IMG/VR virus record: IMGVR_UViG_3300017824_001452
Reading direction: 5' to 3' (one strand)
DNA length: 64,000 bases
From: a virus
Both the position numbers and the translations under genes were made by a program. The number at the start of each line of letters is the position of its first letter. Position 1 is the stretch's first letter. Shown piece after piece: positions 31,571-63,506 of this stretch. Under the pieces are notes generated by a model that was not told the DNA's origin, did no database searches, and worked only from the letters and a program-made list of their open reading frames with translations.

Positions 31571-34500
31571 ATGGCACTAACATCACCAGGCGTAGAAGTA
31601 AGCATCATTGATGAAAGTCAATACTTGCCAGGCGCAACAGCATCGATTCCCTTCTTCTTGTTAGCAACAGCACAAGATAAAGCGGATCCAACATCAACAG
31701 CAACTGCGGCAGCCACAACAGCCGCAAACGCAGGTAAATTATACAGAGTAACTTCTCAACGTGATCTAGTTACTTTATATGGTAACCCATTCTTTTACAC
31801 AGCATCAAACGGTACTCCGTTGCAAGGCTATGAGTTAAATGAATATGGACTATTAGCGGCTTACTCAGCACTTGGTATTTCAAATCAAGTATTTGTATTA
31901 AGAGCAGACGTTGATCTAGCAAGTTTAGTAGGATCAACAGGTCGTCCAACAGGGGCACCACAAAACGGTTCGTTTTGGTTAAACACAACTTCTTCTACAT
32001 GGGGAATCAATGAGTTTAATTCAACAACAGGAGCATTTACAGCAAAAGCACCAATCGTTATCTCTGACTCTACTTTAGTGTCAATAGGTACACCTCTACA
32101 ATCAGTAGGAAATATCGGTGACTATGCAGTAGTTGCTATACCTAATTATAGAAACCCTAACAATGACAATGCACCTACATATTGGTACAAGAATCGTCAG
32201 AATACATGGGTTGGTTTAGATTCAGTAGACTGGTTCAAGGCATGGCCTTCAATCACTTGTCCTACTTCTAATCCTACATTAACACAAGGCGATACAATCG
32301 ACTTGATCGTTAACGGTACAAACTTAGCACAACTTACTGTATCAGCGGCTCCTAACAACACTATTTCTCAGTTAGCGGCAGACATTAACTCATTAGGTTG
32401 GGAATATGTTTCAGCGGCAGTAGTTGATAACAAACTTGAAGTTTATTCTTCACAGACAGGTGGAGATCAAGGTAGTTCAAACGTACCATTCTACATTAGA
32501 TTTGCTAACGCAACAGGTACTATCTTTACAGACTTAGGATTTACAGGTACTAACGTAACTGGCTTCCAACCAAGAGCATTATATGGTACATCTGCTCAAC
32601 AGCCATTATGGCAATCAGGACAGGCTCAGCCTGCTCCGACTGGCTCTGTATGGATTAAGGTTGACGGAACAGGATTACAACCAGTAATTTCTGAATATGA
32701 TTCTACATCATCTTCATATACTGCTAAAACACCTACTTTTGCAGACTCTGATTGGGCACAAATCTATTCAGCAGACTCAACAGGTGGACAAGCAATTCCA
32801 GCAGGAAGTGTTTATGCACAATATGGATTTAACGGTGAGTACACAGCGGCTCCAGTATACTACTTCTATAGAGTAGCAACAGGTGCAACAGTAATTAATG
32901 GTACAAACACTGCACCAGACTTTACTTCAGGACCATATGTAGCAAGAGTTCAGATTTCAACTCCAGGTTCACAAACATTAAGTACCCCTTATACATTTAA
33001 CTTGGGTGATGCAACTGATGCATCTGACTTTGTAACTGCATGGTCAGCGGCGAACATTCCTTACACTTCAGCAAGTGTAAACGATGATGGTTCAATTCAA
33101 ATTCAACACACTTCAGGTGGTGTTATTATCTTAGATGATTATGACAACGTAACAGGTGTATCTTCTGGTTTATTCTCAGAAGCCGGCTTTACAACTGCAA
33201 CAGCAGGTTGTAAGACAGGACCATTCAGAGATGATATCTCATTTACTCCTACTCAGAGTTCTACATCAGGGTCAGGTACTGCATTATCAATCGCAGTAAC
33301 TAATGACTATGGTTATTATGACTTTGATCCGGATGCAGTAGTAAACGGCGGTACAGGTCATGCTGTAGGTGACGTAGTTACTTTCTCAGGTGCAGACTTG
33401 GGCGGTGCTTCACCAGCAAATGACTTACAAGTAAAAGTTACAAGTGTTACAGCAGGCGTTGTTACATCTTATACTTTAAGTACAGGTACAGGCGCAGATG
33501 CGTTCACAACTCAGTTGTCTAACTGGAGAGAGTTCTCATTAACAACTTCAGGTGCTGATTCATTAACAGCAAACGAAGGTGCTCCGACTGCAATACCTAG
33601 CAACTTTACTAACTGGTACTATTCAACAACTGATCAAGTAGATATTATGATCAACTATGACGGTAATTGGAAGGGTTATAGCCAACAAGGTTATGATGGT
33701 AATGGTTTACCTAGCCCATCAGTCGTAAATGCAACTGATCCTAATGGACCTATCGTAACTGCTAGTGAGCCTACTACTCAAAGTGACGGCACACCATTAG
33801 TATACGGTGATCTTTGGTTAGATACTTCTGACTTAGAAAACTATCCGTTACTTTACAGATGGCAGTCAGTACAAGCAACAGGTGGCGGTAGTGCTACTGA
33901 TAAGTGGGTCTTAATTGACAACTCAGATCAAACTACACCACAAGGTATCTTGTTTAAAGATGCACGTTGGGCAACTAACGGAACAACTAACCCAGCAAAT
34001 GATCCGATGCCGACCATCAAATCATTGCTAGGAAGTGATTACTTAGATGTTGATGCTCCGTTATCATCAAATTACCCACAAGGTATGTTGCTTTGGAACA
34101 CAAGACGTTCTTCATACAACGTGAAGCAATATCGTGTAAACTACTTTAACAACGACAGATTCCCGAATGACACTTTACCAACACAGAAAGATGCATGGGT
34201 ATCTGCTTCAGGTGATGCATCTAACGGTGCAATGAATGCAGGTCGTAAGGCACAAAGAGCAATGGTAACACAAGCATTACGTTCAGCAATTGACTCTAAC
34301 GTTGCAATTAGAGACGAAGATAACTACTTCAACTTACAAGCAACACCGGGTTATCCTGAACTACAACCTAACATGATCGCATTGAACTCTGATAGAGGTG
34401 AGACTTCTTACATTGTTGGTGATACACCAATGAGACTGAAAGATGATGCAACTGAAATTCAGGCTTGGGCAACTAACGCCGCAGGTGCAACAACTACAGG

Positions 34501-35179
34501 TGAAGATGGACTTGTAAGTAGAAATACTTATATGGGTCTATTCTACCCATCAGGTATCACTAGTGATCTATCAGGTAACTTAGTTGCTGTTCCTTCATCA
34601 CACATGATGGTCAGAACTATGTTGCGTAATGACAATATTGCTTATCCTTGGTTAGCACCAGCAGGTACTAGACGTGGTATAATCGATAATGCTACAAGCA
34701 TCGGATACATCGATGACGAAGGCGAGTTTAACTCAATCAGAACACGTATTGGAATTAGAGATGTGTTATACACTAACTTTATTAACCCAATGGTATTCTT
34801 TACAGGTAATGGATTATTGAACTATGGTAACAAAACTTCATTTGATTCATCATCTGCATTAGACAGAGTAAACGTAGCAAGATTAGTTGCTTACATACGT
34901 AGACAATTAATATTAGCCGCGAGACCATTTGTCTTTGAACCTAATGACCCTCAAACAAGAAAATCTATTAAAGCAGTAGTAGAATCATTGTTCCAGGATC
35001 TAGTTTCAAAACGAGGATTATATGACTACTCAGTAGTTTGTGATGATTCTAACAACACTCCAGCAAGAATTGATCGAAATGAACTTTGGATTGACATAGC
35101 AGTAGAGCCCGTGAAAGCCGCTGAGTTTATCTACGTTCCGGTCAGAATATTCAACACTGGTGAGTTATCAGGATCTTAA
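31571..35179 (+). CDS. contractile tail sheath protein (gp18-like), enlarged
   Basis: LTSPGVEV, PWLAPAG.RRG, DRVNVARL, FEPND, VCD.SNNTP..IDRNEL, P.KAAEFI. Confidence 0.95.
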   Translation: MALTSPGVEVSIIDESQYLPGATASIPFFLLATAQDKADPTSTATAAATTAANAGKLYRVTSQRDLVTLYGNPFFYTASNGTPLQGYELNEYGLLAAYSALGISNQVFVLRADVDLASLVGSTGRPTGAPQNGSFWLNTTSSTWGINEFNSTTGAFTAKAPIVISDSTLVSIGTPLQSVGNIGDYAVVAIPNYRNPNNDNAPTYWYKNRQNTWVGLDSVDWFKAWPSITCPTSNPTLTQGDTIDLIVNGTNLAQLTVSAAPNNTISQLAADINSLGWEYVSAAVVDNKLEVYSSQTGGDQGSSNVPFYIRFANATGTIFTDLGFTGTNVTGFQPRALYGTSAQQPLWQSGQAQPAPTGSVWIKVDGTGLQPVISEYDSTSSSYTAKTPTFADSDWAQIYSADSTGGQAIPAGSVYAQYGFNGEYTAAPVYYFYRVATGATVINGTNTAPDFTSGPYVARVQISTPGSQTLSTPYTFNLGDATDASDFVTAWSAANIPYTSASVNDDGSIQIQHTSGGVIILDDYDNVTGVSSGLFSEAGFTTATAGCKTGPFRDDISFTPTQSSTSGSGTALSIAVTNDYGYYDFDPDAVVNGGTGHAVGDVVTFSGADLGGASPANDLQVKVTSVTAGVVTSYTLSTGTGADAFTTQLSNWREFSLTTSGADSLTANEGAPTAIPSNFTNWYYSTTDQVDIMINYDGNWKGYSQQGYDGNGLPSPSVVNATDPNGPIVTASEPTTQSDGTPLVYGDLWLDTSDLENYPLLYRWQSVQATGGGSATDKWVLIDNSDQTTPQGILFKDARWATNGTTNPANDPMPTIKSLLGSDYLDVDAPLSSNYPQGMLLWNTRRSSYNVKQYRVNYFNNDRFPNDTLPTQKDAWVSASGDASNGAMNAGRKAQRAMVTQALRSAIDSNVAIRDEDNYFNLQATPGYPELQPNMIALNSDRGETSYIVGDTPMRLKDDATEIQAWATNAAGATTTGEDGLVSRNTYMGLFYPSGITSDLSGNLVAVPSSHMMVRTMLRNDNIAYPWLAPAGTRRGIIDNATSIGYIDDEGEFNSIRTRIGIRDVLYTNFINPMVFFTGNGLLNYGNKTSFDSSSALDRVNVARLVAYIRRQLILAARPFVFEPNDPQTRKSIKAVVESLFQDLVSKRGLYDYSVVCDDSNNTPARIDRNELWIDIAVEPVKAAEFIYVPVRIFNTGELSGS

Positions 35180-38545: not shown

Positions 38546-39172
38546 ATGAAAAGTTTAAAACATTACATTGCAGAGTCAGTCCACACTTATGATTGCACAA
38601 TCAAACTTGCTGGTGACTGTAGTAAAAATTTCTTAGAGTTATTTAAACATAACTTAAATAAGTTTGAGCCTAAATCAATTAAAGGGCCAACTTCAACTCC
38701 TATTATGAAATCACCATATGGTTTTCCTAATTTATCAAACGAACCAGTACACATCTTTAAGTGTGAGTTTGCATATCCCGTAACAGAACCAATGGTACAA
38801 CAATTAGCACAATTGTTAGGTCACAATATTAATTACGTAAGAATGGTCAATACAGCATTTGATGATAGCATCGATAAAGAACTTGTCGGCTACGAAAATG
38901 AAATGAAAGACACACCTCTCTTACAAAATGAAGAAATGAATGACAATGGAAAAGAAGCCAGTGAAGAATATGGTGATAAGTACTTAGACAGCATTCATAA
39001 ACATGCAGAACATAAAAACGTAGGTAAAGTAGGTTTGCCTGCTGATCAAAAGAACACTAAAGATGCTTTTGATCCTTGGAAGCCATGGTCAGATGATTCA
39101 ATTAAAGGTCAAAAGAGTCCGATGACTGACGTTAAAAGAGGACCCAAGCCTGAAACATCAGCAGGGTACTAA
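38546..39172 (+). CDS. putative internal head protein
   Basis: MKSLKHYIAE resembles the T4 capsid-targeting sequence; late promoter 38518-38523. Confidence 0.55.
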   Translation: MKSLKHYIAESVHTYDCTIKLAGDCSKNFLELFKHNLNKFEPKSIKGPTSTPIMKSPYGFPNLSNEPVHIFKCEFAYPVTEPMVQQLAQLLGHNINYVRMVNTAFDDSIDKELVGYENEMKDTPLLQNEEMNDNGKEASEEYGDKYLDSIHKHAEHKNVGKVGLPADQKNTKDAFDPWKPWSDDSIKGQKSPMTDVKRGPKPETSAGY

Positions 39173-39182
39173 GGAAGACATT

Positions 39183-42100
39183 ATGGATTTTAAAGACATC
39201 TTAAACAAATTCGACAAAGCATCAAAAGAAGAATCTATTGTCGAAACTACTCCTAAAAGACCAGCAAACATGTTGACTGAATCAACAGAGTCTGGTGAAG
39301 TTGTAGAAGTTGTTGAAGGAGTTCAAGTACCTTCATTAAAAAATATGTTTGAAGAACTTTCACTAGAACCAGCAAAGCCTGGTGCACAAACAATTCATAA
39401 AGACGGTGAAGTAATCGGAACTGTTTCTAATCCAGCAGTTGCTAATCAAATGTCACAAGCAATCGACAAAGGCGAATTACAAATCGGTCAAGAAATGCAA
39501 GAAGCAGAACAACTTGACGAACTTGCTCCTTTAGCGGCATTAGGGCCAGCACTTATGACTGGTGCTAGAGTGGCAGGTCCTTGGTTAGCAAAACGTGGCG
39601 CTCAAATGATTAGTGGAGTCGCCAGAGGCGCAGGTAACTATGCTAAAAAGAACCCAATCAAAACTGCTGTAGGTACAGGGGTAGCCGGCACAGAGCAAGG
39701 TAGAGAACTTGCAGGCAACGTCAAAGACGGCGCTGTCGGAATGTATAACTTAACCAACACAACATTTGAAAAAATGAATGATATGATCGATTCAGGTAAA
39801 CACACGTTTGACCAAGCCTCTCAAAAAATTGCAGACTTAGGTGACGGCGCAGGTGGTATGATTAGAGGCGCAATCGGTGATGCCGCATTTGATACAGTTA
39901 AAAGAACAGCATCAACATATGGTCTTCCTTTACTAGCCGCAGTAGCATTACTATACGGCGGAAAGAAAGTTTTAGATAAAGTAATGGACAAAGACGAAGA
40001 TACTGTTAGAGAAGCAAAAGATTGGATCTCGGGTGCTATCAAAGACCCAGGTGCATTCTCAGCAAAAGCAAAAAGACATGGAATGACAACTAAAGCATTT
40101 GCTAATCACGTATTAGCAAACAAAGATGATTTCCCTGCAAAAACAGAAAAACAAGCAAATCTTGCTAAAACATTAGGCAAGATGAAAGAGGGCGAAATGC
40201 CCCCACAAGGTCCAGGACAAGCATCTCCTTTAACATTTGAAGGTGCTCAAAATCCACCGGATGACGGTTCACATAATTCATCTAACGATGAAAAAGGCAA
40301 CGCCGCGGCAAACGCCGCATTGGCAGCCAACGATGCTGATACACCGCAACTTGTAAAAGAAAAAGCAAAAGGTAAAGTAAGCAAGTCGAGTAAATTACCT
40401 AGTATTTCAAAAGTGAAATCTATGTGTAACGAAGGGCTGTCTACTAAAGAAATACAACAACTGCACCCTAAGTGCAACCAACAAGAACTTAATATTATGA
40501 TTAAAAATACTAAAACAAACTTAAAAGAAGGCGCAGATCACATTCTGAAGGCCGCAAAGCACATGGGTCATGCTCATGGTTTATGTAAAGGATCTTATGC
40601 ATGTCCACATGATGCAGGTTCTGAAGGTGCAAGAGCATACCACGAAGGCTACAAAAAAGGTCTTGACGAAGCATGTGGCATGGGAATCAAAAACGAACCA
40701 ATCGCAGGTATGGAAGAAGGCGTACTCGGTGGAGTAGGCGGTGCTATTGCAGGATCTAAATTAGGTGGCATGGCAGGCACAGCAATCGGTGGTTCAATCG
40801 GTGGCGTTCCTGGAGCAACTATAGGTAAGGCAGCAGGCGCGGCACTAGGTGGAATCGCAGGTGATAAATTAACAGGCGACGGCATCTTTGAAGAACCAGC
40901 AGATGAAGTTGTAGATACTATGGCATCTTACGGTGCAATGGGCGAAGCAGAATCTTCACCAGACGGAGACGTTGGTGCTGATGATGACGGTGCATATGAC
41001 AAATATGACTGGGACGCACAAACTGTAGCACGTAAAGGCATTGACGAAGATGAAATGGAAGAAGGTAATGCATTTACAGGCGCAATGGCAGGAAAAGAAA
41101 AAGGTGAAAAGTTCACAGTAGGCGACAAAACATTTACAAAAACATCAGAAGCCGCTACATTAGAAGAAGATGAGTGGACTTTTGAGTCTTTAGAAAAAGA
41201 ATTAAACTCACACTTAGTCGAAAGCACAGAAGAATCAAAAGAACAACTTGACGAAGGCTATACAATGTCTATTACTCAAGGCGAAGAAAATCAGCCAGAC
41301 AGAGTAAGTGTTAATGCCACAGATGCAGAAGCAGACAAGTTAATCAAGTTTGTTAAAGACGTAGGCTTAGGTAACTATGGTGATGCAGAAGTATTAGATG
41401 CACCAGGTGAAGTTGCAGACGTATCATTTTATGGTAGCCCTGAAGTAGAAGTAGAGCCTCAAAGTTCACACGATGACATGCTCAAGTTAATGGGTATTGT
41501 AGACGTAGACGGTGACTATGAAGATGAAGTAGAAGCACCCGGCGTAACAGACGTTGACGTACAAGTAGATGAAAAGTCATGTGACGAATGTGGTGGCGGA
41601 CATAGCATGGAAGAAGGCTGTGGAGACAAAGCATACGAAGATCAAGGTTATGATGACAAAGAAGATGAGTCATTAGGTATGAGAACTGGTAAAGAATCAG
41701 GTAAAAAACAGTCTATGAAAGACCGTAGAGATGATTCTTATGGTAAGTTCGGTAAACGTGACTCTGAACATAGAGATGTTTCATTAGAAGAACAAGAAAA
41801 AGATGCAGGATTATACGACAAGTATGATTGGGACGCATCTACAGTTGCTAAAAAAGGCATTGACGAAGAATCTGATGCTGAAAGAGACGATCATGCAGAA
41901 CGTGCAGGTAAAGAAGTTGCACGACACGCAAAGTACGACGGTCGTAAGCACCCAGGAAGAGATGGTGAAGACATCGTTAAAGATTTAGAATACGATGACT
42001 GGAAAGATAAGCATCATATGGAAGAAGATCAAGGCTATGATGACAAAGAAGATGAGTCATTAGGTATGAGAACTGGTAAAGAGTCTGATAAGAAGCAAAG

Positions 42101-42926
42101 TATGAAAGATCGTAGAGATGATTCATATGGTAAGTTTGGTAAGAGAGATGAAGAACATAGAGAAAAATCTTTAGAAGAAACTCTTGCTCAGTTAGATGAA
42201 CTTGCTCAGTTAGATGAAAAGCAAGGTTATGATGACAGAGAAGACGAACAACTAGGTATGAAAGACGGCAAAGAATCTGATAAGAAACAATCAATGAAAG
42301 ATCGCCGTGATGATTCACGTGGTAAGTTTGGTAAAAGAGATAAAGAAGATGACAATAAACCTCGTTCTTTAGAAGAAAATCTTAGAACTTTAGACTTATT
42401 AGCAGAAGTAGGCGCAGAAACTTCAGAAGAACCTACTCAACCATTATCACAACATGATGATGAGAGACTTTTAACTAAAGAAGGCGCAGAGGATGCCCCT
42501 AAGGACTCTATAAACGATGGTGAGAACGAAGAAATCACTGAGATGGAAACTGATGCTCAAAGAGAATTCAAAGTAGCAGAAGGTGAAGATAAGCCAGACT
42601 TTGCTGACATCGATGATGATGGCGACAAAGATGAGTCTATGAAAAAAGCCGCTAAAGATAAGAAAGAAAAAGTTGATGAATGGGCAAATGATGCAGGTAA
42701 GAAAGGTACTGATACAGCATTTGAACAAGACATTGAGTTTATGACTAAAGTTATCTCTGGTGGTCTTAACAAGCAGAAGTCAACAGGTCAAACAACTATC
42801 CCAGTTATTGCTGGTCAAGAAGACAGAATGGGATATAATGGTGCTGACGTTGTTAAAGAGGGTTCTGTTGTTTCATCTAATGGATTCGCAACTATTTTAA
42901 ACAAGTTAGATAGTATCAAAGAATAA
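39183..42926 (+). CDS. modular internal head polyprotein (putative prohead-protease substrate)
   Basis: Many hydrophobic-x-E sites bounding distinct and repeated modules; acidic linkers. Confidence 0.65.
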   Translation: MDFKDILNKFDKASKEESIVETTPKRPANMLTESTESGEVVEVVEGVQVPSLKNMFEELSLEPAKPGAQTIHKDGEVIGTVSNPAVANQMSQAIDKGELQIGQEMQEAEQLDELAPLAALGPALMTGARVAGPWLAKRGAQMISGVARGAGNYAKKNPIKTAVGTGVAGTEQGRELAGNVKDGAVGMYNLTNTTFEKMNDMIDSGKHTFDQASQKIADLGDGAGGMIRGAIGDAAFDTVKRTASTYGLPLLAAVALLYGGKKVLDKVMDKDEDTVREAKDWISGAIKDPGAFSAKAKRHGMTTKAFANHVLANKDDFPAKTEKQANLAKTLGKMKEGEMPPQGPGQASPLTFEGAQNPPDDGSHNSSNDEKGNAAANAALAANDADTPQLVKEKAKGKVSKSSKLPSISKVKSMCNEGLSTKEIQQLHPKCNQQELNIMIKNTKTNLKEGADHILKAAKHMGHAHGLCKGSYACPHDAGSEGARAYHEGYKKGLDEACGMGIKNEPIAGMEEGVLGGVGGAIAGSKLGGMAGTAIGGSIGGVPGATIGKAAGAALGGIAGDKLTGDGIFEEPADEVVDTMASYGAMGEAESSPDGDVGADDDGAYDKYDWDAQTVARKGIDEDEMEEGNAFTGAMAGKEKGEKFTVGDKTFTKTSEAATLEEDEWTFESLEKELNSHLVESTEESKEQLDEGYTMSITQGEENQPDRVSVNATDAEADKLIKFVKDVGLGNYGDAEVLDAPGEVADVSFYGSPEVEVEPQSSHDDMLKLMGIVDVDGDYEDEVEAPGVTDVDVQVDEKSCDECGGGHSMEEGCGDKAYEDQGYDDKEDESLGMRTGKESGKKQSMKDRRDDSYGKFGKRDSEHRDVSLEEQEKDAGLYDKYDWDASTVAKKGIDEESDAERDDHAERAGKEVARHAKYDGRKHPGRDGEDIVKDLEYDDWKDKHHMEEDQGYDDKEDESLGMRTGKESDKKQSMKDRRDDSYGKFGKRDEEHREKSLEETLAQLDELAQLDEKQGYDDREDEQLGMKDGKESDKKQSMKDRRDDSRGKFGKRDKEDDNKPRSLEENLRTLDLLAEVGAETSEEPTQPLSQHDDERLLTKEGAEDAPKDSINDGENEEITEMETDAQREFKVAEGEDKPDFADIDDDGDKDESMKKAAKDKKEKVDEWANDAGKKGTDTAFEQDIEFMTKVISGGLNKQKSTGQTTIPVIAGQEDRMGYNGADVVKEGSVVSSNGFATILNKLDSIKE
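41640..42377 (+). repeat. three copies of a 51-53-aa QGYDD...GKFGKRD module
   Basis: 41640-41792, 42027-42179, 42219-42377; plus exact 18-nt tandem CTTGCTCAGTTAGATGAA x2 at 42183-42218. Confidence 0.95.
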
Positions 42927-43032: not shown

Positions 43033-46000
43033 ATGGCACAAAGAAATATTGACTTCGGAGCATTCCCTGACGATCCAGATGCAGATGCAATACGATCGGC
43101 GTTTGAAAAAGTTCAGTTAAATTTTACAGAAGTATTTGCAGGACTAGGTGATCAAGCAGTTGTCTCAGTCAATAAAACTGCAGGACCTGGCATATATTTA
43201 GTTAATGGTTCTCCAGTAGGTAATGTTGTATTAGGTGCAAACATTGCTTGTGTACAGTTTTCTTCAACAACATTATCAGTAGGTCGTTCACCGGGTACAG
43301 GTCCAGGTTCTGCGACTATTACTGATTCTACTCAAACATTATATATTGATTTACCTAACACAATAGCAAACGTTACTGACGTTGTAGTATCAAATAGTGT
43401 ACAAGGCAACGCAATTATAGGTAATCTATCAGGTGATTTTGGATACGTATTAGCAAATGCATCATCTGGAAATGGTAATATAGATGCTAACAATATAACA
43501 TTGACAGGTGCTGTTGTAGCATCTAATGTTAGTGGTAATGGTGCTGGGTTATCAGCACTCACAGGTTCAAATGTAACTGGACAAGTAGGGAACGCATTAG
43601 TTGCAGGTACAGTGTACACTGCGGCGCAACCTAACATTACTTCAGTAGGAACTTTAACAACACTAGATGTAATGTCAACAGTAACTGCAACAGCATTTAC
43701 TGCAAATACAGGTTTATTTACTGGCGACGGCGGTGGTTTATCAAACATCGTTGGTGCAAATGTAACAGGAGAAGTTACTAACTCTGCGACAGCAAACGCA
43801 GTAGCAGGCGCAAACGTAAGTGGAGAAGTAGCATTCTCCGCAGTAGCAAATTCAGTAGCAGGATCAAATGTATCTGGTGCAGTCTCATTCGCAACAACTG
43901 CTAATGCAGTCGCCGGAGCAAATGTCTCTGGTGAAGTCGCATTTGCCGCTACAGCAAATAGTGTTGCTGGCGCAAACATATCAGGCGAAGTTGCATTCGC
44001 CGCTACTGCTAATTCAGTTGCAGGTTCTAATGTCAGCGGCGAAGTATCATTTGCACAAGTAGCAAATTCAGTCGCAGGTGCAAACGTAACAGGTGAAGTA
44101 AGTTTTGCAAGTACTGCAAATAGTGTTGCAGGAGCAAATGTCTCAGGCGCAGTAGCCAATGCTACACATGCATTATCAGCAGACTCAGCAAATGCAGTAG
44201 CAGGTGCTAACGTAACTGGTGAAGTAGGTTTTGCGGCTGTTTCAAATTCAGTAGCAGGATCAAATGTTTCAGGTGAAGTCGGATTTGCCGCAGTTGCTAA
44301 TAGTGTTGCTGGTGCAAATGTAACTGGTGAAGTATCAAATGCCGCAACTGCAAATGCAGTCGATGGCGCCAACGTATCGGGTACGGTTGCAAATGCTACA
44401 CATGCAACCACAGCAAATACGGTAGTTGATGCGGTACAATCAAATATTACAACTGTAGGTACATTAAGTTCATTAGATGTATCAGGCAATCTTAGTGCTG
44501 GCAATGTAACAACAACTGGTACATTTACTGGTGATGGTGGTGGTTTATCAAACATCTCTGTATCAACAGGATCTTATATCGAAAACGGTACAAGTGAAGC
44601 AAGACTTGACACTGACGGTCCTTTCAGAGTTACAGTTGGTGGAACTGCAAACGTATTACAAGTTAACAATACAGGTACAGAAGTAGCAGTAACAGGCTCA
44701 ATGTCTGTATCAGGTGGATTTGATAACAACATAGACTTTAACAGCACATCTAATTTAGGGCCAGTAGGCAACGTAACAATTACAGGTGGTGCTACTGGAG
44801 CATTCTTAATGACAGATGGCTCTGGTACTTTAACATGGGACACAGCAACTTTAGTTCCAGCACAAGGCGCAGATACACAAATTATATTCAATGACGGTGG
44901 AAGTACATATGCCGGTAACACTGGACTAACGTTCAATAAAACATCAGGTAATGTGGCAATACCAGGCAACTTAGCAGTAACAAGTGCTGTATCTGGTACA
45001 ACACTTGAAGGAAGTTTATTAACAAATGCACAACCAAACATTACAAGCCTTGGTACATTAACAAGTTTAATTTTAAGTGGTAATCTCAATACTAACAGTG
45101 ATCTTATCACTAACGCAGGTAACATTACAATTGCTAGTGGTACAGGATCATTTATAGGAAATGGTGCAGGATTAACAAATATTACAGGAGCAAACGTAAG
45201 TGAAGTTCCTTTAGCAACATTAGCAACTACTGCTACAACAGCAAACGCAGTTGCAGGTGCTAATGTATCAGGAGAAGTTCCCTTTGCACAAGTAGCCAAT
45301 TCAGTTGCTGGTGCAAATGTTTCAGGCGAAGTTGCATTCGCCGCTACTGCTAACTCAGTAGCAGGTGCTAACGTTTCTGGAGCAGTTGCAAGTGCTACTA
45401 CAGCAACAACTGCCACAACAGCAGATACCGTAACAACAGCATCACAACCCAACATCACTAGTGTTGGAACGTTATCGTCATTATCTGTTACAGGTAATGT
45501 GTCTGCAGGAAATGTATCGGGCACTGGTGGTGTCTTTACATACGTATCAGGAGATGGCGCTAACTTAACAGCAATAGACGGACAACAAGTTACAGGTGAA
45601 GTAGACTTTGCACAAGTAGCAAATAGTGTCGCAGGTGCTAATGTATCAGGGACTGTCGCATTAGCAACAACCGCAGGAACTGTGTCTACATCAGCACAGC
45701 CAAACATCACATCTGTTGGAACTTTAACAGTATTAGGTGTAAATGGTATTGTAACAGCACAATCGTTTACAGCAAATACAGGGTTATTTAACGGTGATGG
45801 TGGTGGACTATCTAATGTGGCGGCAGCCAATATTAGTGGTATAGTAGCAAACGCAACATATGCAACATCAGCAGGTAGTGCGGCATTAGCATTAGATATT
45901 ACAGGAGCAACACAACCTAATATTACTAGTGTAGGCACACTAACAAGTTTAACAGTGTCTGGTAACATAACTAACCAGACTCACATTATTAAAGATGTAA

Positions 46001-46302
46001 CAACCGCAACAGCAGGTGGCACCGATCAATCAGGAGCAACAGCATTAAGTGGAGCAGATATATTCTCAGTTACTACACCTAGCAATAACAACGGTGTTAG
46101 ATTGATGGCTGCTACTCCTGGCTTATGTATATACATCAAAAATTTAGATCCAACAGATACATTAAAAGTATATCCAGCATCTAATGATGCGATTGACGGT
46201 AACGGAACTAATGGAGCAATGTCAATAGGTCCTTTAGGACAAATTCAATTTGTAGCCCACAGTTCATCACAATGGTATACTGTCGGCGCAACATATGCAT
46301 AA
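43033..46302 (+). CDS. tail/baseplate fibre protein with 18-aa tandem repeats
   Basis: N-terminal D.IRSAFEKV..NFTE anchor; VAGANVSGEVAFAATANS repeats; late promoter 43005-43010. Confidence 0.8.
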   Translation: MAQRNIDFGAFPDDPDADAIRSAFEKVQLNFTEVFAGLGDQAVVSVNKTAGPGIYLVNGSPVGNVVLGANIACVQFSSTTLSVGRSPGTGPGSATITDSTQTLYIDLPNTIANVTDVVVSNSVQGNAIIGNLSGDFGYVLANASSGNGNIDANNITLTGAVVASNVSGNGAGLSALTGSNVTGQVGNALVAGTVYTAAQPNITSVGTLTTLDVMSTVTATAFTANTGLFTGDGGGLSNIVGANVTGEVTNSATANAVAGANVSGEVAFSAVANSVAGSNVSGAVSFATTANAVAGANVSGEVAFAATANSVAGANISGEVAFAATANSVAGSNVSGEVSFAQVANSVAGANVTGEVSFASTANSVAGANVSGAVANATHALSADSANAVAGANVTGEVGFAAVSNSVAGSNVSGEVGFAAVANSVAGANVTGEVSNAATANAVDGANVSGTVANATHATTANTVVDAVQSNITTVGTLSSLDVSGNLSAGNVTTTGTFTGDGGGLSNISVSTGSYIENGTSEARLDTDGPFRVTVGGTANVLQVNNTGTEVAVTGSMSVSGGFDNNIDFNSTSNLGPVGNVTITGGATGAFLMTDGSGTLTWDTATLVPAQGADTQIIFNDGGSTYAGNTGLTFNKTSGNVAIPGNLAVTSAVSGTTLEGSLLTNAQPNITSLGTLTSLILSGNLNTNSDLITNAGNITIASGTGSFIGNGAGLTNITGANVSEVPLATLATTATTANAVAGANVSGEVPFAQVANSVAGANVSGEVAFAATANSVAGANVSGAVASATTATTATTADTVTTASQPNITSVGTLSSLSVTGNVSAGNVSGTGGVFTYVSGDGANLTAIDGQQVTGEVDFAQVANSVAGANVSGTVALATTAGTVSTSAQPNITSVGTLTVLGVNGIVTAQSFTANTGLFNGDGGGLSNVAAANISGIVANATYATSAGSAALALDITGATQPNITSVGTLTSLTVSGNITNQTHIIKDVTTATAGGTDQSGATALSGADIFSVTTPSNNNGVRLMAATPGLCIYIKNLDPTDTLKVYPASNDAIDGNGTNGAMSIGPLGQIQFVAHSSSQWYTVGATYA
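43750..44410 (+). repeat. ~12 tandem 54-nt (18-aa) coding repeats
   Basis: VAG(A/S)NV(S/T)GEVxFAxxANS; further copies near 45240-45390 and 45590-45660. Confidence 0.9.
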
Positions 46303-46334
46303 TGTTTTGCATCTTTAGAAAGGATAAAAAACAA

Positions 46335-46796
46335 ATGAAATTATCAAAGAATTTTACACTCACAGAGTTTGAAAAAAGTCAAACTGCTATACGTCAGGGT
46401 TTAGATAACACTATGCCTGAAGAACATTTAGAAAATGCAAAAGCATTATGTGAAAACGTATTACAAAAAGTAAGAGATCATTTTGGACCTGTAATTATTA
46501 ATAGTGGATATCGTGGATCTGCTCTTAATAAAGCAGTAGGTGGAAGTGCAAAATCACAACACTGTAAGGGTCAAGCCGCAGACATAGAAATACATGGAGT
46601 ATCTAATTACGATCTTGCTAAATGGATTGAAAAAAATACAGATTTTGATCAAGTAATTTTAGAATTCTACACTCCGGGTATACCTGATTCAGGTTGGGTG
46701 CATGTTACTTACAATACTGCAGGTAATAGAGGCAAGTCTTTAACTGCATCTAAAGTCGATGGCAGAACACATTATTCTTTAGGTCTCACTAAATGA
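46335..46796 (+). CDS. peptidase M15A (putative endolysin)
   Basis: LSKNFTLTEF, SGYR...LN.AVGG...SQH..G.AAD, WVH; AAGGA RBS supports ATG 46335. Confidence 0.85.
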   Translation: MKLSKNFTLTEFEKSQTAIRQGLDNTMPEEHLENAKALCENVLQKVRDHFGPVIINSGYRGSALNKAVGGSAKSQHCKGQAADIEIHGVSNYDLAKWIEKNTDFDQVILEFYTPGIPDSGWVHVTYNTAGNRGKSLTASKVDGRTHYSLGLTK

Positions 46797-49417
46797 GTAA
46801 TCATCCTGAGTGGGTAACACCAGCCGGAAGTATAGGCGCATTCCCGTCTCAAGTTCCTATGACATTTACGTTTGTAGCAACCCCAGAACTTCCTGCAACA
46901 GCAATTACTTACGCAGTATTGAGCGGAAGCATACCTTCAGGATTATCATTAGATAGTGAAACTGGAATATTATCAGGTACACCTGCAACTGTGGGTGCAG
47001 ACACTACTTACAATTTTTCTATTAGAGCAACAGACGATTATCTAGGTGATACACAACGTATTATGGATAGAACATTTAGTATGATTATTAGTGGTGTTGC
47101 AACACCTGAATTTACTACTCCTGCAGGTACTATTTTAAATTCAAACGACAGTGTATGGAGAGAATTGCAGATAGAATATACAAATCCAGTAACGACTAAT
47201 CCAATATCTATTAGGAAAATTCAAGGAACATTGCCTCCTGGATTAGAAATTAATGAATCAGGATTAATTAGAGGTTATCCTGAACCACCCGTCATTAGTG
47301 TTAATTATAGTACTGTTAATACATCAGTATTAGCCATATCATCAAACGTTTTGACAGTATTGAGTACAACAGGATTTATTAAAGAAAGGCCTATTATATT
47401 TAATGGTGCAGTTTATGGGGACATTGTAGCAAATAGAGTATATTATGTCAAAGATATTTTAAGTGCAACTACATTTACAATATCATCAGCACGTGGCGGA
47501 GCAGAAGAAATTTTATCAGATGGCGTAGGAACATTTGGAGCATTATTACCACAAATACAAACAGGTGAGCCTACTGTACAAACATATTCATTTACATTAG
47601 AATTAGTATCACCATTAGGAAATGCATTAGAATCATATAATATTATTATTGCAAATCAAAATGCGCCGATAAGTGCAGGAGGTCCTGGCCTTCCACCAAA
47701 CAGCAGAATACCTAGTGTCTTAAATACAAGACCACAAACATTTGATGTTGCAACCAATGATCCAACTAACTATGGTTATTATGTATTTCCTAATGATGAT
47801 CCAAATACTACGTATTCACCAAGTGAAGAAGCAAATATAGGAACCTTTCAAAGTGGAGAATATTTTGCATGGAGAATGTTAGGAAAAGATTTTGATGGCA
47901 ATGCTTTAGAATATCGATACACTGATCTACCTTTAGGATTAGTAGGAGATTCAGTGACTGGATGGATAACAGGAACGCCTGTAATTGCTGATAATAGTAT
48001 TTCAAATTATACATTTAGTGTTAATGTAAGAAAAGCAAGTTTTACATCTATACAAAGTTCCACATTTAAATTTAAAATGACTGTTACAAATGATATATTA
48101 GGAGTAATCAATTGGACAACACCTAATGATCTTGGTAAAATGAATAACAGTGAAACATCTATTTTAGCGGTTAATGCAACAAGTGATGTAGAACTTGAAT
48201 ATAGAGTTACGAGCGGCACATTACCTCCCAACTTACAATTGTTAAGCAATGGTGAAATATCAGGTAAAGTAGCATATCAACCCAATGATACATTTACAGA
48301 ACCAAACGCAGAAACACCGTTTACATTTACAATCGAAGCATATTCGCCTTTTTATCCTGTGATTAATTCTACAAGAACGTTTACATTAACTATCGTACAA
48401 GAATTTATTCAACCCACAGATACTTTATATATTAAATGTGTACCAAATGTTGCAGATAGGAATATTATTAATTCATTACTTAACAATACAATGATTTTCC
48501 CTGAACAAGATTTGTATAGGCCAGAAGACGTAAACTTTGGTAAAGCAACTAATATTACATATGAACATGCGTATGGTATATATGCAAGTGATTTTGAAGA
48601 ATATGTAGCCGCTATTGACAAGAATCATTATTGGAGATATATTACATTAGGTGAATTAAAAACAGCAGTTGCAAAAAATTCTGCTGGAGAAATAGTTTAT
48701 GAAGTAGTTTATTCTCAAATACAAGATGATCTAATAAACCCAAAAGGCAAAAGCATCAGTGAAGAAATTTTATGGCCTAGAAGTATACCACTTAGTAAAG
48801 GACCATGGTACACAAGTGTAACAGATATCTACACAAGTTATATAGATACAACCCCCGACGGACAACAAATACAAACAGAAGAAACGTTTGAAGAACAATT
48901 AATCGTTTCAGAAACTGAATTACCTTTGTTAACAGAAACAAGTCAACCAGCATATTATACAAGTTTAACTCCTGAATTTGCAAGAGCATTGTATCCTAAT
49001 TCATTGCCAAACATGAGAGACAGAGCAGGACAGAACTTAGGACAAGAATTTGACTTTAGACTTCTTCCTGAATGGATGACTAGTCAACAAGCAAACGGTT
49101 CGACTTTAGGATATACTCCCGCTTGGGTTCTTGCTTATTGTAAGCCGGGTACCGCTGATACAATTAAAAACAATATTGAAACTTTATGGGTAGATCCTTT
49201 AGGTAAACCATACACATTGAACACAATTAACTTCCAGTTAGACAGAATTACAGTTAATAAATCTACTACGTTTGACTATGATAATAACACTAGTCCGCCC
49301 GCATGGACAGGATTACCTAGTGCATCTCCAGAACCTAATCCTATTGATTCTGAAGACTTTCATGTTTTATTTCCTAGAAGAACTGTTTTACCAGACGAAG
49401 GAAATGTATCTGGATAA
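46793..49417 (+). CDS. baseplate wedge-like protein with Ig-like repeats
   Basis: Repeated G.LP.GL.L...G.ISGTP (putative Ig) units. Confidence 0.65.
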   Translation: MSNHPEWVTPAGSIGAFPSQVPMTFTFVATPELPATAITYAVLSGSIPSGLSLDSETGILSGTPATVGADTTYNFSIRATDDYLGDTQRIMDRTFSMIISGVATPEFTTPAGTILNSNDSVWRELQIEYTNPVTTNPISIRKIQGTLPPGLEINESGLIRGYPEPPVISVNYSTVNTSVLAISSNVLTVLSTTGFIKERPIIFNGAVYGDIVANRVYYVKDILSATTFTISSARGGAEEILSDGVGTFGALLPQIQTGEPTVQTYSFTLELVSPLGNALESYNIIIANQNAPISAGGPGLPPNSRIPSVLNTRPQTFDVATNDPTNYGYYVFPNDDPNTTYSPSEEANIGTFQSGEYFAWRMLGKDFDGNALEYRYTDLPLGLVGDSVTGWITGTPVIADNSISNYTFSVNVRKASFTSIQSSTFKFKMTVTNDILGVINWTTPNDLGKMNNSETSILAVNATSDVELEYRVTSGTLPPNLQLLSNGEISGKVAYQPNDTFTEPNAETPFTFTIEAYSPFYPVINSTRTFTLTIVQEFIQPTDTLYIKCVPNVADRNIINSLLNNTMIFPEQDLYRPEDVNFGKATNITYEHAYGIYASDFEEYVAAIDKNHYWRYITLGELKTAVAKNSAGEIVYEVVYSQIQDDLINPKGKSISEEILWPRSIPLSKGPWYTSVTDIYTSYIDTTPDGQQIQTEETFEEQLIVSETELPLLTETSQPAYYTSLTPEFARALYPNSLPNMRDRAGQNLGQEFDFRLLPEWMTSQQANGSTLGYTPAWVLAYCKPGTADTIKNNIETLWVDPLGKPYTLNTINFQLDRITVNKSTTFDYDNNTSPPAWTGLPSASPEPNPIDSEDFHVLFPRRTVLPDEGNVSG

Positions 49418-61349: not shown

Positions 61350-63506
61350 ATGGCAAATATTGTTATTATGCCAGGTGGATTTCACCCATTTCATGCAGGG
61401 CATGCCGCACTTTACAACTCTATAAAAGAGAAGTATGGTAAAGGCTCTGACATCTATGTGGCCGCTAGTAACAATCAAAAAGAACGACCCTTCCCATTTG
61501 AAATTAAAGAAAAATTAGCACAACTTTCAGGTGTACAACCAGGTGAGTTTGTGCAAGTTAAATCTCCGTTTGTACCAACAGAAATCACAAACAAGTATGA
61601 TCCAGACAAAGACACGATTGTTTTTGTACGAAGTGAAAAAGATAAAAATGAATACCCAAAGCCCGGGGCAGTTAAGAAAGACGGATCACCGGGATACTTT
61701 CAACATATAGATACAGCAAAAAGAGGTGCACAACCTTTTAGTAAAGTAGGCTATATGGATTACTTACCAGTTAAAGAATTTGCAGGTATTACTAGTGCTA
61801 CACAAATCAGAGATACGTGGCCTAGTCTTAATGATGATCAACGTGAAGAATTTGTAACACACATTTATCCTAATATAAAAGGCAACGACAAACTAATTAA
61901 GAATGTAGTTAAGTTATTAAGTAAAGGAATGTCCTTAAATGAAGGACTAGCATATATTGATAAAGATGGTAACAGAGTTGATTATACAAGACCTGACTTA
62001 CCCACAGACATTGAAAATTTAGTCATTGATTGGTTTAATGACAGAGACAAATACACTAAGGCAACTTTACAATCTAAAGGATATAAAGTAGACGTTGATG
62101 ATAAGTTCAACAACATTGATATTACAGACAAAAGAGGTAGAAAATATACTGTGTCTACAGACGATGCAATGTCTAAACTTATACAACAAGCATATGCAGA
62201 ACCAATGACTGAAGACAAGAACGATACATTACTTGATACAAAACGTGCAAGAGCAATACTTCAACTTTATACAAGAACAAACGGGTTTGATTTAAGAAAA
62301 ATCATATCAAGCCGTAAACGTGGCGGCGGCACTAACGAAAGAATAATGACAGTAATGCTTAGACCGGACTCTAAGACTTTCAGTAGAGACGATATAGATA
62401 ATCTTTCCGATGAACTTCAAAGAAGATTTAGTGTTACAGTTCCTAGAATGACTATTACAGGTAACGGTAGTTATCTTAATCTAAATCCTGTTGTAGTTAC
62501 AAAAGTAAATGAAGCATTTGTTGACCCAGATCAATCAAAGCAATATTGGAACCACGATGCACAAAAAGTAGGCGTCGGTGGACAAATAGAGTTTCCACTT
62601 ACTGACACACCAAACTTAAATGGCAGAAGACAAGGCTTCAATGAAGGTGAAGAAAGAAGTGATATCGAAACTGCCGCTTATGAATGGTTGCTAGATTATA
62701 AAAGTAAAAATCCTGAAGCAGACTATGAAAAACTGTATTCAGTATTAAAAAATGTTAGCCACGATGATCTTGGTACACAAGAATTAGATTATTTTATAGG
62801 AGAACCATTAGGCTTGAACATGGACAACAAGAATTTAATTGTTGATGCTGTTCTTGCTCAAATGACAGAAGGCGTGCGTAGATACAGATACGAAGAAAGC
62901 ATAGAAAAGATTCGTAACATGATTAAAGAGTCAAGTGACGAACAGAAATCTAAGTCCACAGATTTACATCGCAAACTGTTTGAACTTATGGAAGAAGAAA
63001 AAAACAACGTTGTTAAACTCCGAGGTTTTGGTAGAGAACAAGATAAAAAAGTACCTGATTTAAACATAGTTAGAAAAGAAAAAGAAAAAGAACAACAAAG
63101 AAATCAAGGCGAGTACGATAAGAAAAGACAACAGCAACTTGCATACTTAAGAAAGATACAAGAAGTCTTATTTGAATTGCATGAAGAATTTGCACAGATG
63201 GAACAGTTAGGTCTTTTACCTATCGAAATGAAACAAAACTTTGAAAACGTAAAAGAACTAATTAACTTTGTAGAGAACTATAGTGCTGATGATTTCCCCT
63301 TCACTGATGATGACGGGAACTTACTTGAATCATTGCATGTGAAGACTCTGCAACTTAAAGAATATTTTGGTGGTTGGAGAGACAGACAAGCACCTAGAAC
63401 ATTAAGAAACGATAAGCCAAAACTATCCCCATTAACAAACGTAAATAATGCATTTTGGAACACGATTGATTTGTCCGAAACCGCTGATTATATCGAAGAA
63501 AAATAA
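61350..63506 (+). CDS. HxGH nucleotidyltransferase (cytidylyltransferase-like) fused to a modular tail
   Basis: PGGFHPFHAGH and ITSATQIR in the first ~195 aa; then modules bounded by LNE/MTE/VNE/FNE/IKE/LKE. Confidence 0.75.
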   Translation: MANIVIMPGGFHPFHAGHAALYNSIKEKYGKGSDIYVAASNNQKERPFPFEIKEKLAQLSGVQPGEFVQVKSPFVPTEITNKYDPDKDTIVFVRSEKDKNEYPKPGAVKKDGSPGYFQHIDTAKRGAQPFSKVGYMDYLPVKEFAGITSATQIRDTWPSLNDDQREEFVTHIYPNIKGNDKLIKNVVKLLSKGMSLNEGLAYIDKDGNRVDYTRPDLPTDIENLVIDWFNDRDKYTKATLQSKGYKVDVDDKFNNIDITDKRGRKYTVSTDDAMSKLIQQAYAEPMTEDKNDTLLDTKRARAILQLYTRTNGFDLRKIISSRKRGGGTNERIMTVMLRPDSKTFSRDDIDNLSDELQRRFSVTVPRMTITGNGSYLNLNPVVVTKVNEAFVDPDQSKQYWNHDAQKVGVGGQIEFPLTDTPNLNGRRQGFNEGEERSDIETAAYEWLLDYKSKNPEADYEKLYSVLKNVSHDDLGTQELDYFIGEPLGLNMDNKNLIVDAVLAQMTEGVRRYRYEESIEKIRNMIKESSDEQKSKSTDLHRKLFELMEEEKNNVVKLRGFGREQDKKVPDLNIVRKEKEKEQQRNQGEYDKKRQQQLAYLRKIQEVLFELHEEFAQMEQLGLLPIEMKQNFENVKELINFVENYSADDFPFTDDDGNLLESLHVKTLQLKEYFGGWRDRQAPRTLRNDKPKLSPLTNVNNAFWNTIDLSETADYIEEK

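Follow-up and report, generated by a model that had tools for sequence, protein, structure and literature searches.

The window analysed here, a stretch of 64,000 nucleotides (nt) from IMG/VR virus record IMGVR_UViG_3300017824_001452, is a piece of a T4-related jumbo myophage. At positions 39183-42926 (+) it carries an open reading frame (ORF) that is open throughout for 1247 codons and has an AGGAA ribosome-binding site upstream; frames on the opposite strand of the locus are at most 113 amino acids (aa) long and unsupported, and the ORF is a real gene. Its product is acidic (pI 4.6, about 10% each of G, D, E, K and A) and belongs to a family of 213 clusters at 90% identity, all metagenomic and of about 700-1432 aa, with relatives on 58 viral contigs, several of them from records of 267-360 kilobases (kb). 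As far as the searches reach, the family appears restricted to uncultured T4-related jumbo phages and widespread there. We find that the protein is a mosaic of small cassettes whose joints frequently coincide with conserved hydrophobic-x-Glu motifs. Our favoured reading, which we consider about equally likely to be right or wrong, is that of a head-packaged precursor that the capsid protease cuts at the conserved sites, releasing many small units, and in which cassettes are swapped at the joints.

Both ends of the protein are conserved and the middle is a mosaic. The N-terminal leader (aa 1-33, 39183..39281 (+)) opens with a near-invariant MDFKxIL, followed by a variable basic spacer up to a conserved LTE/S (the slash marks the bond after Glu). 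At this site, position 33, joint conservation is 0.94 compared with 0.47 in the flanks, and the distant orthologue in relative G001 reads VLKE/S. The next unit, a conserved small beta/alpha unit (aa 34-113, 39282..39521 (+)), ends at QLDE/ and has a predicted local distance difference test score (pLDDT) of 55-65 in the P0075 model. It is followed by a moderately hydrophobic cassette (aa 114-277, 39522..40013 (+); KD19 maximum 1.23) that ends at TVRE/ and is optional, occurring in about 35-40% of orthologues, and by a DUF3008-like cassette (aa 278-336, 40014..40190 (+)) that ends at MKE/G and matches phrog_20603 over aa 280-335 (E 5e-16). A movable cassette (aa 337-393, 40191..40361 (+); conserved portion GAQ...LVKE/), lies 5' of the Cys/His unit here but after a CxxC block elsewhere in the family.

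The Cys/His helical core unit (40362..40670 (+)) consists of two sub-blocks, aa 394-449 ending at NLKE/ and aa 450-496 ending at GLDE/. Both sites are invariant and the sub-blocks also occur independently, as found in 116 representative clusters at 50% identity, where the proteins that host the unit are nearly always of 450-1200 aa; in one lineage half of the unit is duplicated at another place in the protein. The second sub-block was considered as a ribosome modulation factor, an identity that found no support: aa 450-496 gave no Pfam hit at E 1, no PDB sequence match at E 10 and zero Foldseek matches, with a model pLDDT below 60 in that half. Directly 3' of GMEE/ begins a Gly-zipper cassette (aa 513-571, 40719..40895 (+)) with a weak match to Rick_17kDa_Anti (E 0.007); this optional cassette and the moderately hydrophobic one are each present in only about 35-50% of orthologues.

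Further downstream, a first copy of the YDKYDWD cassette (aa 589-622, 40947..41048 (+)), ending at GIDE/, precedes the conserved acidic core (aa 628-811, 41064..41615 (+)), which holds the invariant sites LVE/S and LDE/G and a CxxC motif. The core is followed by the first copy of the R cassette (aa 819-870, 41637..41792 (+)), ending at SLEE/, and by the second YDKYDWD copy (aa 871-895, 41793..41867 (+)), again ending at GIDE/. The adjoining AERAGKEV...EYDDW cassette (aa 896-948, 41868..42026 (+)) ends at HMEE/ and is duplicated and relocated elsewhere in the family, and R copies 2 (aa 949-999, 42027..42179 (+)) and 3 (aa 1013-1065, 42219..42377 (+)) both end at SLEE/. All three R copies have the peptide pattern 'QGYDD..DESLGMR..KDRRDDSYGKFGKR'. 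The conserved C-terminal domain (aa 1167-1247, 42681..42923 (+)) begins after VDE/W, and its tail, here GFATIL, aligns with the LAG[IL] of distant orthologues. A Pfam scan of the whole protein and of nine segments gave nothing above noise, and neither an enzymatic domain nor a zincin-like peptidase was detected.

At the DNA level the internal repeats comprise 156 nt in three copies (starting at 41637, 42024 and 42216) and 68 nt in two (40983 and 41802). The repeats are old yet constrained, the ratio of non-synonymous to synonymous substitutions (dN/dS) between copies being 0.10 and 0.11. An earlier note on this DNA, made from the letters alone, had described a string of blocks that each start after and end at a hydrophobic-x-Glu site, with duplicated modules ending exactly at such sites. 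The sites it listed and the block structure are present, but "each block" was too strong, as P3 is T or A at some boundaries (TFE/GAQ, AYE/DQGY) and the motif is often missing where Gly-zipper cassettes end. Similarly, SLEE closes the first two 156-nt copies exactly, and GIDE both 68-nt copies, but the third 156-nt copy has a two-residue insertion that places SLEE two residues later.

In T4, the residues at P3 and P1 determine processing by the prohead protease gp21, and Asp at P1 blocks it (PMC9026906). Among orthologues, the Glu of [LMVIF]xE motifs is 82% conserved and non-motif Glu 68%, with flanks that are less conserved (Mann-Whitney p 1.3e-5 relative to flanks). The effect stands out most clearly when the hydrophobic residue is two positions before the Glu (offset -2, p 1.2e-4); offset -3 gives a borderline signal (p 0.04), and -4, -1 and +1 to +3 give none. 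All p-values are approximate because the sequences tested are kin. The effect holds for Glu and there is none for Asp. About 17 motif sites are conserved at 94-100%; LTE/S, MKE/G, LVE/S, LDE/G, LEE/N, LAE/V, VAE/G, VDE/W and VKE/G reach this level with flanks that are 35-82% identical. Examples of the conserved Glu positions are 33, 336, 449, 496, 680, 691, 1065, 1075, 1133, 1166 and 1226. At P3 the protein also has M, V and F besides residues of the Leu/Ile type. The scaffold protein, used as a positive control in the same test, behaves in the same direction, though weakly (0.96 vs 0.80, p 0.06). The comparison supports selection on the motif in the pattern required by T4 gp21, with Glu rather than Asp at P1 and a hydrophobic P3.

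The joints between cassettes show a related pattern. Pairwise alignments of 43 orthologues yielded 115 indel clusters, of which 11 have a motif site at both ends (0.2 expected) and 23 at the end of the insert (3.9 expected); the 11 double-ended cases trace to about six independent cassettes. Indel boundaries fall after Glu two to three times as often as expected, a hydrophobic P3 adding only slightly to this preference, and gap placement is noisy within the acidic linkers. The gain and loss of modules at xE boundaries that the earlier note anticipated is thus borne out, and cassettes have been gained, lost, duplicated and moved at these boundaries among lineages.

The hydropathy of the hydrophobic parts stays below the usual membrane-helix threshold. 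A structure model of an 863-aa orthologue (from a 55-sequence alignment) has a mean pLDDT of 41.5, with three small units at 55-70; about a quarter of it is helix in short pieces, with short strands, mostly coil and no long helices. Modelled alone, the Cys/His unit attains a pLDDT of about 78, confined to the first three helices. On these models the protein is predicted to be mostly disordered. These results bear on the proposal that the protein acts inside the tail, as a tape measure or as an ejection or channel protein, is encoded with the tube genes and sends its hydrophobic and Gly-zipper segments into the host membrane. The gene does follow two tube-like genes, with a fibre gene and an M15 peptidase gene downstream of it, moderately hydrophobic and Gly-zipper segments are present, and conserved ends flank a variable middle. 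We nevertheless find a tail-internal role improbable, given that the hydrophobic and Gly-zipper cassettes are optional and of no more than moderate hydropathy, that the modelled helix is short and of low confidence, and that orthologues sharing 78-90% identity differ in length by up to 25% (1147-1432 aa), the overall range being 767-1432 aa. A tape measure in particular is disfavoured because a length ruler could not tolerate such variation and because the model is mostly disordered; what we found is not the long, mostly helical chain of fixed length in close relatives that would identify one.

Support for the precursor reading also comes from other phages, in which two of the cassettes have stand-alone homologues. 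The DUF3008-like cassette covers positions 2-57 of the 59 in the phrog_20603 profile; its size and limits equal those of a 59-aa free-standing phage protein, and tblastn aligns it with 59-aa Thermus phage ORFs (e.g. G20c_105) at 49% identity. Pfam PF11450 (DUF3008) itself does not reach E 1 on the protein; it is recorded for distant family members. For the R cassette there are at least 167 clusters of free-standing proteins of 55-100 aa at 70-90% identity, which matched no Pfam or PHROG family. These small proteins are basic and carry '...QGYK.REDESLGMRTGKES.KKQSMKDRRDESYGKWGKR...'. On three contigs of an unrelated phage type (L087 8001-8213, L173 and L174) the small R gene lies three genes 3' of an SU10-type portal gene, and in one of the three a capsid gene is visible further downstream. 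Candidate stand-alone forms of the hydrophobic cassette (aa 114-277) were rejected, because the short matches are fragments of the full gene that frameshifts in error-prone assemblies have broken up. On the constrained repeats and the homologues together, we read the cassettes as functional units.

The protease required by the precursor reading is encoded in relatives. Each of the three long-record relatives, G001-G003, encodes an S77 prohead protease (PF03420, E 2e-28 to 3e-27); five fragments closer to the window phage do not span the head region. Long record IMGVR_UViG_3300032242_000723 (92% complete) has both an orthologue and a gp21-like protease. In G001 and G002 the head cluster reads portal, gp67-like acidic protein, protease, scaffold and capsid, and G003 has the same order plus one ORF after the portal. 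The capsid protein of the clade carries [LI][AS]E/S about 20 residues before a conserved VIRRV block, invariant in 27 distinct sequences, and T4 gp23 has LTE/A at the equivalent position.

A second link to the head lies at the C-terminus. In G001-G003 the last residues of the distant orthologues are W[AK][KR]L[AS]G[IL]; those of the scaffolds are [ILM][KR]RLAGL, a pattern kept without exception by the 53 scaffolds that have a readable C-terminus. The fuller form of this scaffold end, DNVID[ILM]KRLAGL, is likewise invariant (L064 8009-9106 (-), L093-L172). In G001 the orthologue and the scaffold are the only two of 890 ORFs with an LAGL-type motif in their last 20 residues, and the orthologue ranks first of 889 for likeness to the scaffold C-terminus, although its score barely tops that of the runner-up (22 vs 21) and the motif was defined post hoc. 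In the clade of the window, the stretch aligned to the scaffold-like motif reads ..DGLAGLM... The scaffold-like end of the distant orthologues is suggestive, but not proof, of co-assembly with the core.

The same C-terminal motif would fit a sacrificial accessory of the prohead core or scaffold, like T4 gp22, gp67 and gp68, that goes to the core, is cut to pieces at many sites and is cleared out before the DNA is packaged, its fragments having no later role. The acidic, disordered make-up is that of the gp67-like protein beside the protease, and many sites would give small clearable pieces, as in T4 and phiKZ-like phages (PMC5694885). We regard such a fate as unlikely, since the cassette sequences are under strong purifying selection (dN/dS 0.1), other phages encode cassette homologues as free-standing proteins, and the head cluster already has a separate scaffold and a gp67-like protein.

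In our favoured reading, the protein would be a late structural precursor built into the interior of the prohead, where the T4 gp21-type protease of the phage would cut it after the conserved hydrophobic-x-Glu sites. Cleavage would yield the leader, acidic linker pieces and about 15-20 small units of 10-160 aa. The units would be the evolutionary cassettes (DUF3008-like, Cys/His helical, Gly-zipper, threefold R peptide and others), which lineages gain, lose, duplicate and move at the site-bearing joints. The resulting fragments would either pass with the DNA into the cell or be expelled like T4 scaffold fragments. A tentative extension, which we hold possible but rather doubtful, is a phage 'prohormone': a packaged precursor of some 15-20 mini-proteins that enter the host with the DNA, among them the three R peptides, the DUF3008 unit, the Cys/His unit and optional membrane-seeking peptides, so that cassette swaps at the cleavage joints would alter the delivered cocktail.

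Several points weigh against a cleaved, head-packaged precursor, besides the kinship of the sequences tested and the post hoc scaffold-like motif. Recombination at repeated GAA-rich DNA could be behind part of the boundary pattern. In this protein the C-terminus reads GFATIL..., the LAGL motif having been lost. Its gene sits outside the head cluster, between the sheath, tube and gp4-like genes and a fibre-like gene, and in G001 the orthologue lies about 150 kb from the head cluster. Searches of cultured phages with the protein, at the DNA and the protein level, gave the DUF3008 piece as the sole match; queries with the C-terminal and Cys/His pieces and with a stand-alone R protein likewise had no cultured-phage match. 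The motif count is also weak, at 37 compared with 25.5 expected from shuffles (z 2.7, p 0.0085). The ratio is 1.45. Of the remaining proteins in the window that are 200 aa or longer, seven equal or exceed this value, the clamp loader and the tail tube among them, and 1.45 lies between uncleaved T4 gp20 (1.41) and T4 gp22 (1.80). The motif enrichment that the earlier note proposed to count is not distinctive; of its proposal of a cleavable modular precursor, the cassette architecture, the selection on the motif and the S77 protease with capsid LxE/S in the three long-record relatives hold up, but the motif count and the location of the gene do not favour it.

An ordinary ratio is what would be expected of an uncleaved disordered protein, structural or not, whose motifs are ends of short helices or docking motifs unrelated to the protease. 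Gly is the next residue at nine of the 37 sites, and these Gly-followed sites could be helix caps. The conservation effect is nevertheless seen for Glu and not for Asp, the sites are kept inside poorly conserved linkers of low model confidence, and cassette joints fall on them, all of which makes an uncleaved protein a distinctly unlikely explanation.

For a cleaved precursor, the cutting of head proteins by a capsid protease at multiple sites has precedents in T4 and phiKZ-like phages (PMC5694885, PMC9026906). Like T4 gp22, gp67, gp68 and the small internal peptides made by gp21, the protein described here is acidic and partly disordered with many hydrophobic-x-Glu sites, its clade has a gp21-type S77 protease, and its LTE/S resembles the LTE/A of T4 gp23. 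In contrast to these core proteins it is 4-15 times longer and encoded outside the head cluster, and it is made of conserved mini-domains and repeated peptides that are under purifying selection and shuffled between lineages; no sequence homology to the core proteins was found. The T4 proteins IPI-III and Alt, which carry a capsid targeting sequence that is removed by gp21 and are injected with the DNA, offer a parallel to the proposed fate of packaging and delivery (PMC9026906), and also have genes outside the head cluster and a conserved N-terminal leader followed by a hydrophobic-x-Glu site. However, the leader here (MDFKxIL...LTE/S, about 33 aa) is longer than the T4 capsid targeting sequence (10-20 aa), one precursor would give many products instead of one, and the T4 internal proteins are basic, whereas this protein is acidic overall with a few basic cassettes.

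The inner-body and ejection proteins of phiKZ, 201phi2-1 and SPN3US are likewise head proteins of giant phages, in which the prohead protease recognises a short motif and cleaves after its Glu, often more than once per protein (PMC5694885, PMC9026906). Those phages, of another lineage, use S/A/G-x-E, and cleavage of their long N-terminal propeptides frees a single mature fragment; no homology to our protein was detected. Polyvalent proteins (Iyer et al. 2017, PMC5512222) share the concept of a long multi-module protein among late virion genes, delivered as one polypeptide that gives separate functional units. In contrast to that class, the protein has no detected enzymatic domain or embedded zincin-like peptidase, which places it outside the class definition; its modules are mini-proteins of 35-60 aa and its processing would be in trans by the capsid protease. 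By analogy, it would resemble the T4 core and internal proteins and the phiKZ-like inner-body proteins, and would differ from them in its exchangeable mini-protein cassettes. If this reading is true, it would provide a simple rule for how giant phages vary their packed and delivered cargo, and a first functional context for two orphan small-protein families, DUF3008 and the 'DESLGMR' peptide of the R clusters.

The gene order around the locus is kept in relatives, both close and distant. On the 5' side lie genes for the sheath, the tube, a second tube-like protein, a 125-aa ORF, a gp4-type head completion protein, a 161-aa ORF and a 208-aa ORF, and on the 3' side genes for a 1089-aa fibre-like repeat protein, an M15 peptidase and an Ig-domain protein. 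The nearest sheaths to that of the window phage are from Sinorhizobium phage Phosso, Agrobacterium phage Atu_ph07 and Pseudomonas phage PA5oct (about 45% identity). The window sheath (31571-35179 (+), 1202 aa) contains a large lineage-specific insertion, because relatives align to only 56-61% of it, in two pieces. On ENA contigs L091 and L092 the family gene and its neighbours, including the sheath, are split into several ORFs, which resembles assembly frameshift errors and not true gene splits. The T4 late promoter TATAAATA shows no enrichment in the window.

The 208-aa ORF (38546..39172 (+)) is co-oriented with the candidate precursor gene and ends 10 nt from it. Its N-terminus, MKSLKHYIAE/S, which 15 relatives conserve, resembles the targeting sequence of T4 internal proteins, MKTYQEFIAE (PMC8442874), and has I as residue 8 and E as residue 10. 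It shows weak homology to PA5oct gp202, which has been detected in virions. As PA5oct gp202 reads YDA in place of IAE and so lacks the Glu, we mention the T4-like leader as a remark only. PA5oct gp203, a virion protein and the positional counterpart of the candidate precursor, was rejected as its homologue, profile comparison having detected no homology.

A 718-aa protein elsewhere in the window (61350-63506 (+)) has a hydrophobic-x-Glu ratio of 1.51, a ratio that is uninformative by itself according to the controls. The fibre-like protein (43033-46302 (+), 1089 aa) contains many 'ANSVAGANVSGEV'-type repeats, and two antisense frames inside its gene, at 43332-44555 (407 aa) and 44574-45968 (464 aa), are probably by-products of the repeat composition. 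Positions 46272-49417 (+) encode a 174-aa M15_3 peptidase and then an 874-aa Ig-domain (He_PIG) protein. The M15_3 gene shares 31 nt with the end of the fibre gene and 4 nt with the start of the He_PIG gene, and its product may be a virion-associated wall-cutting enzyme.

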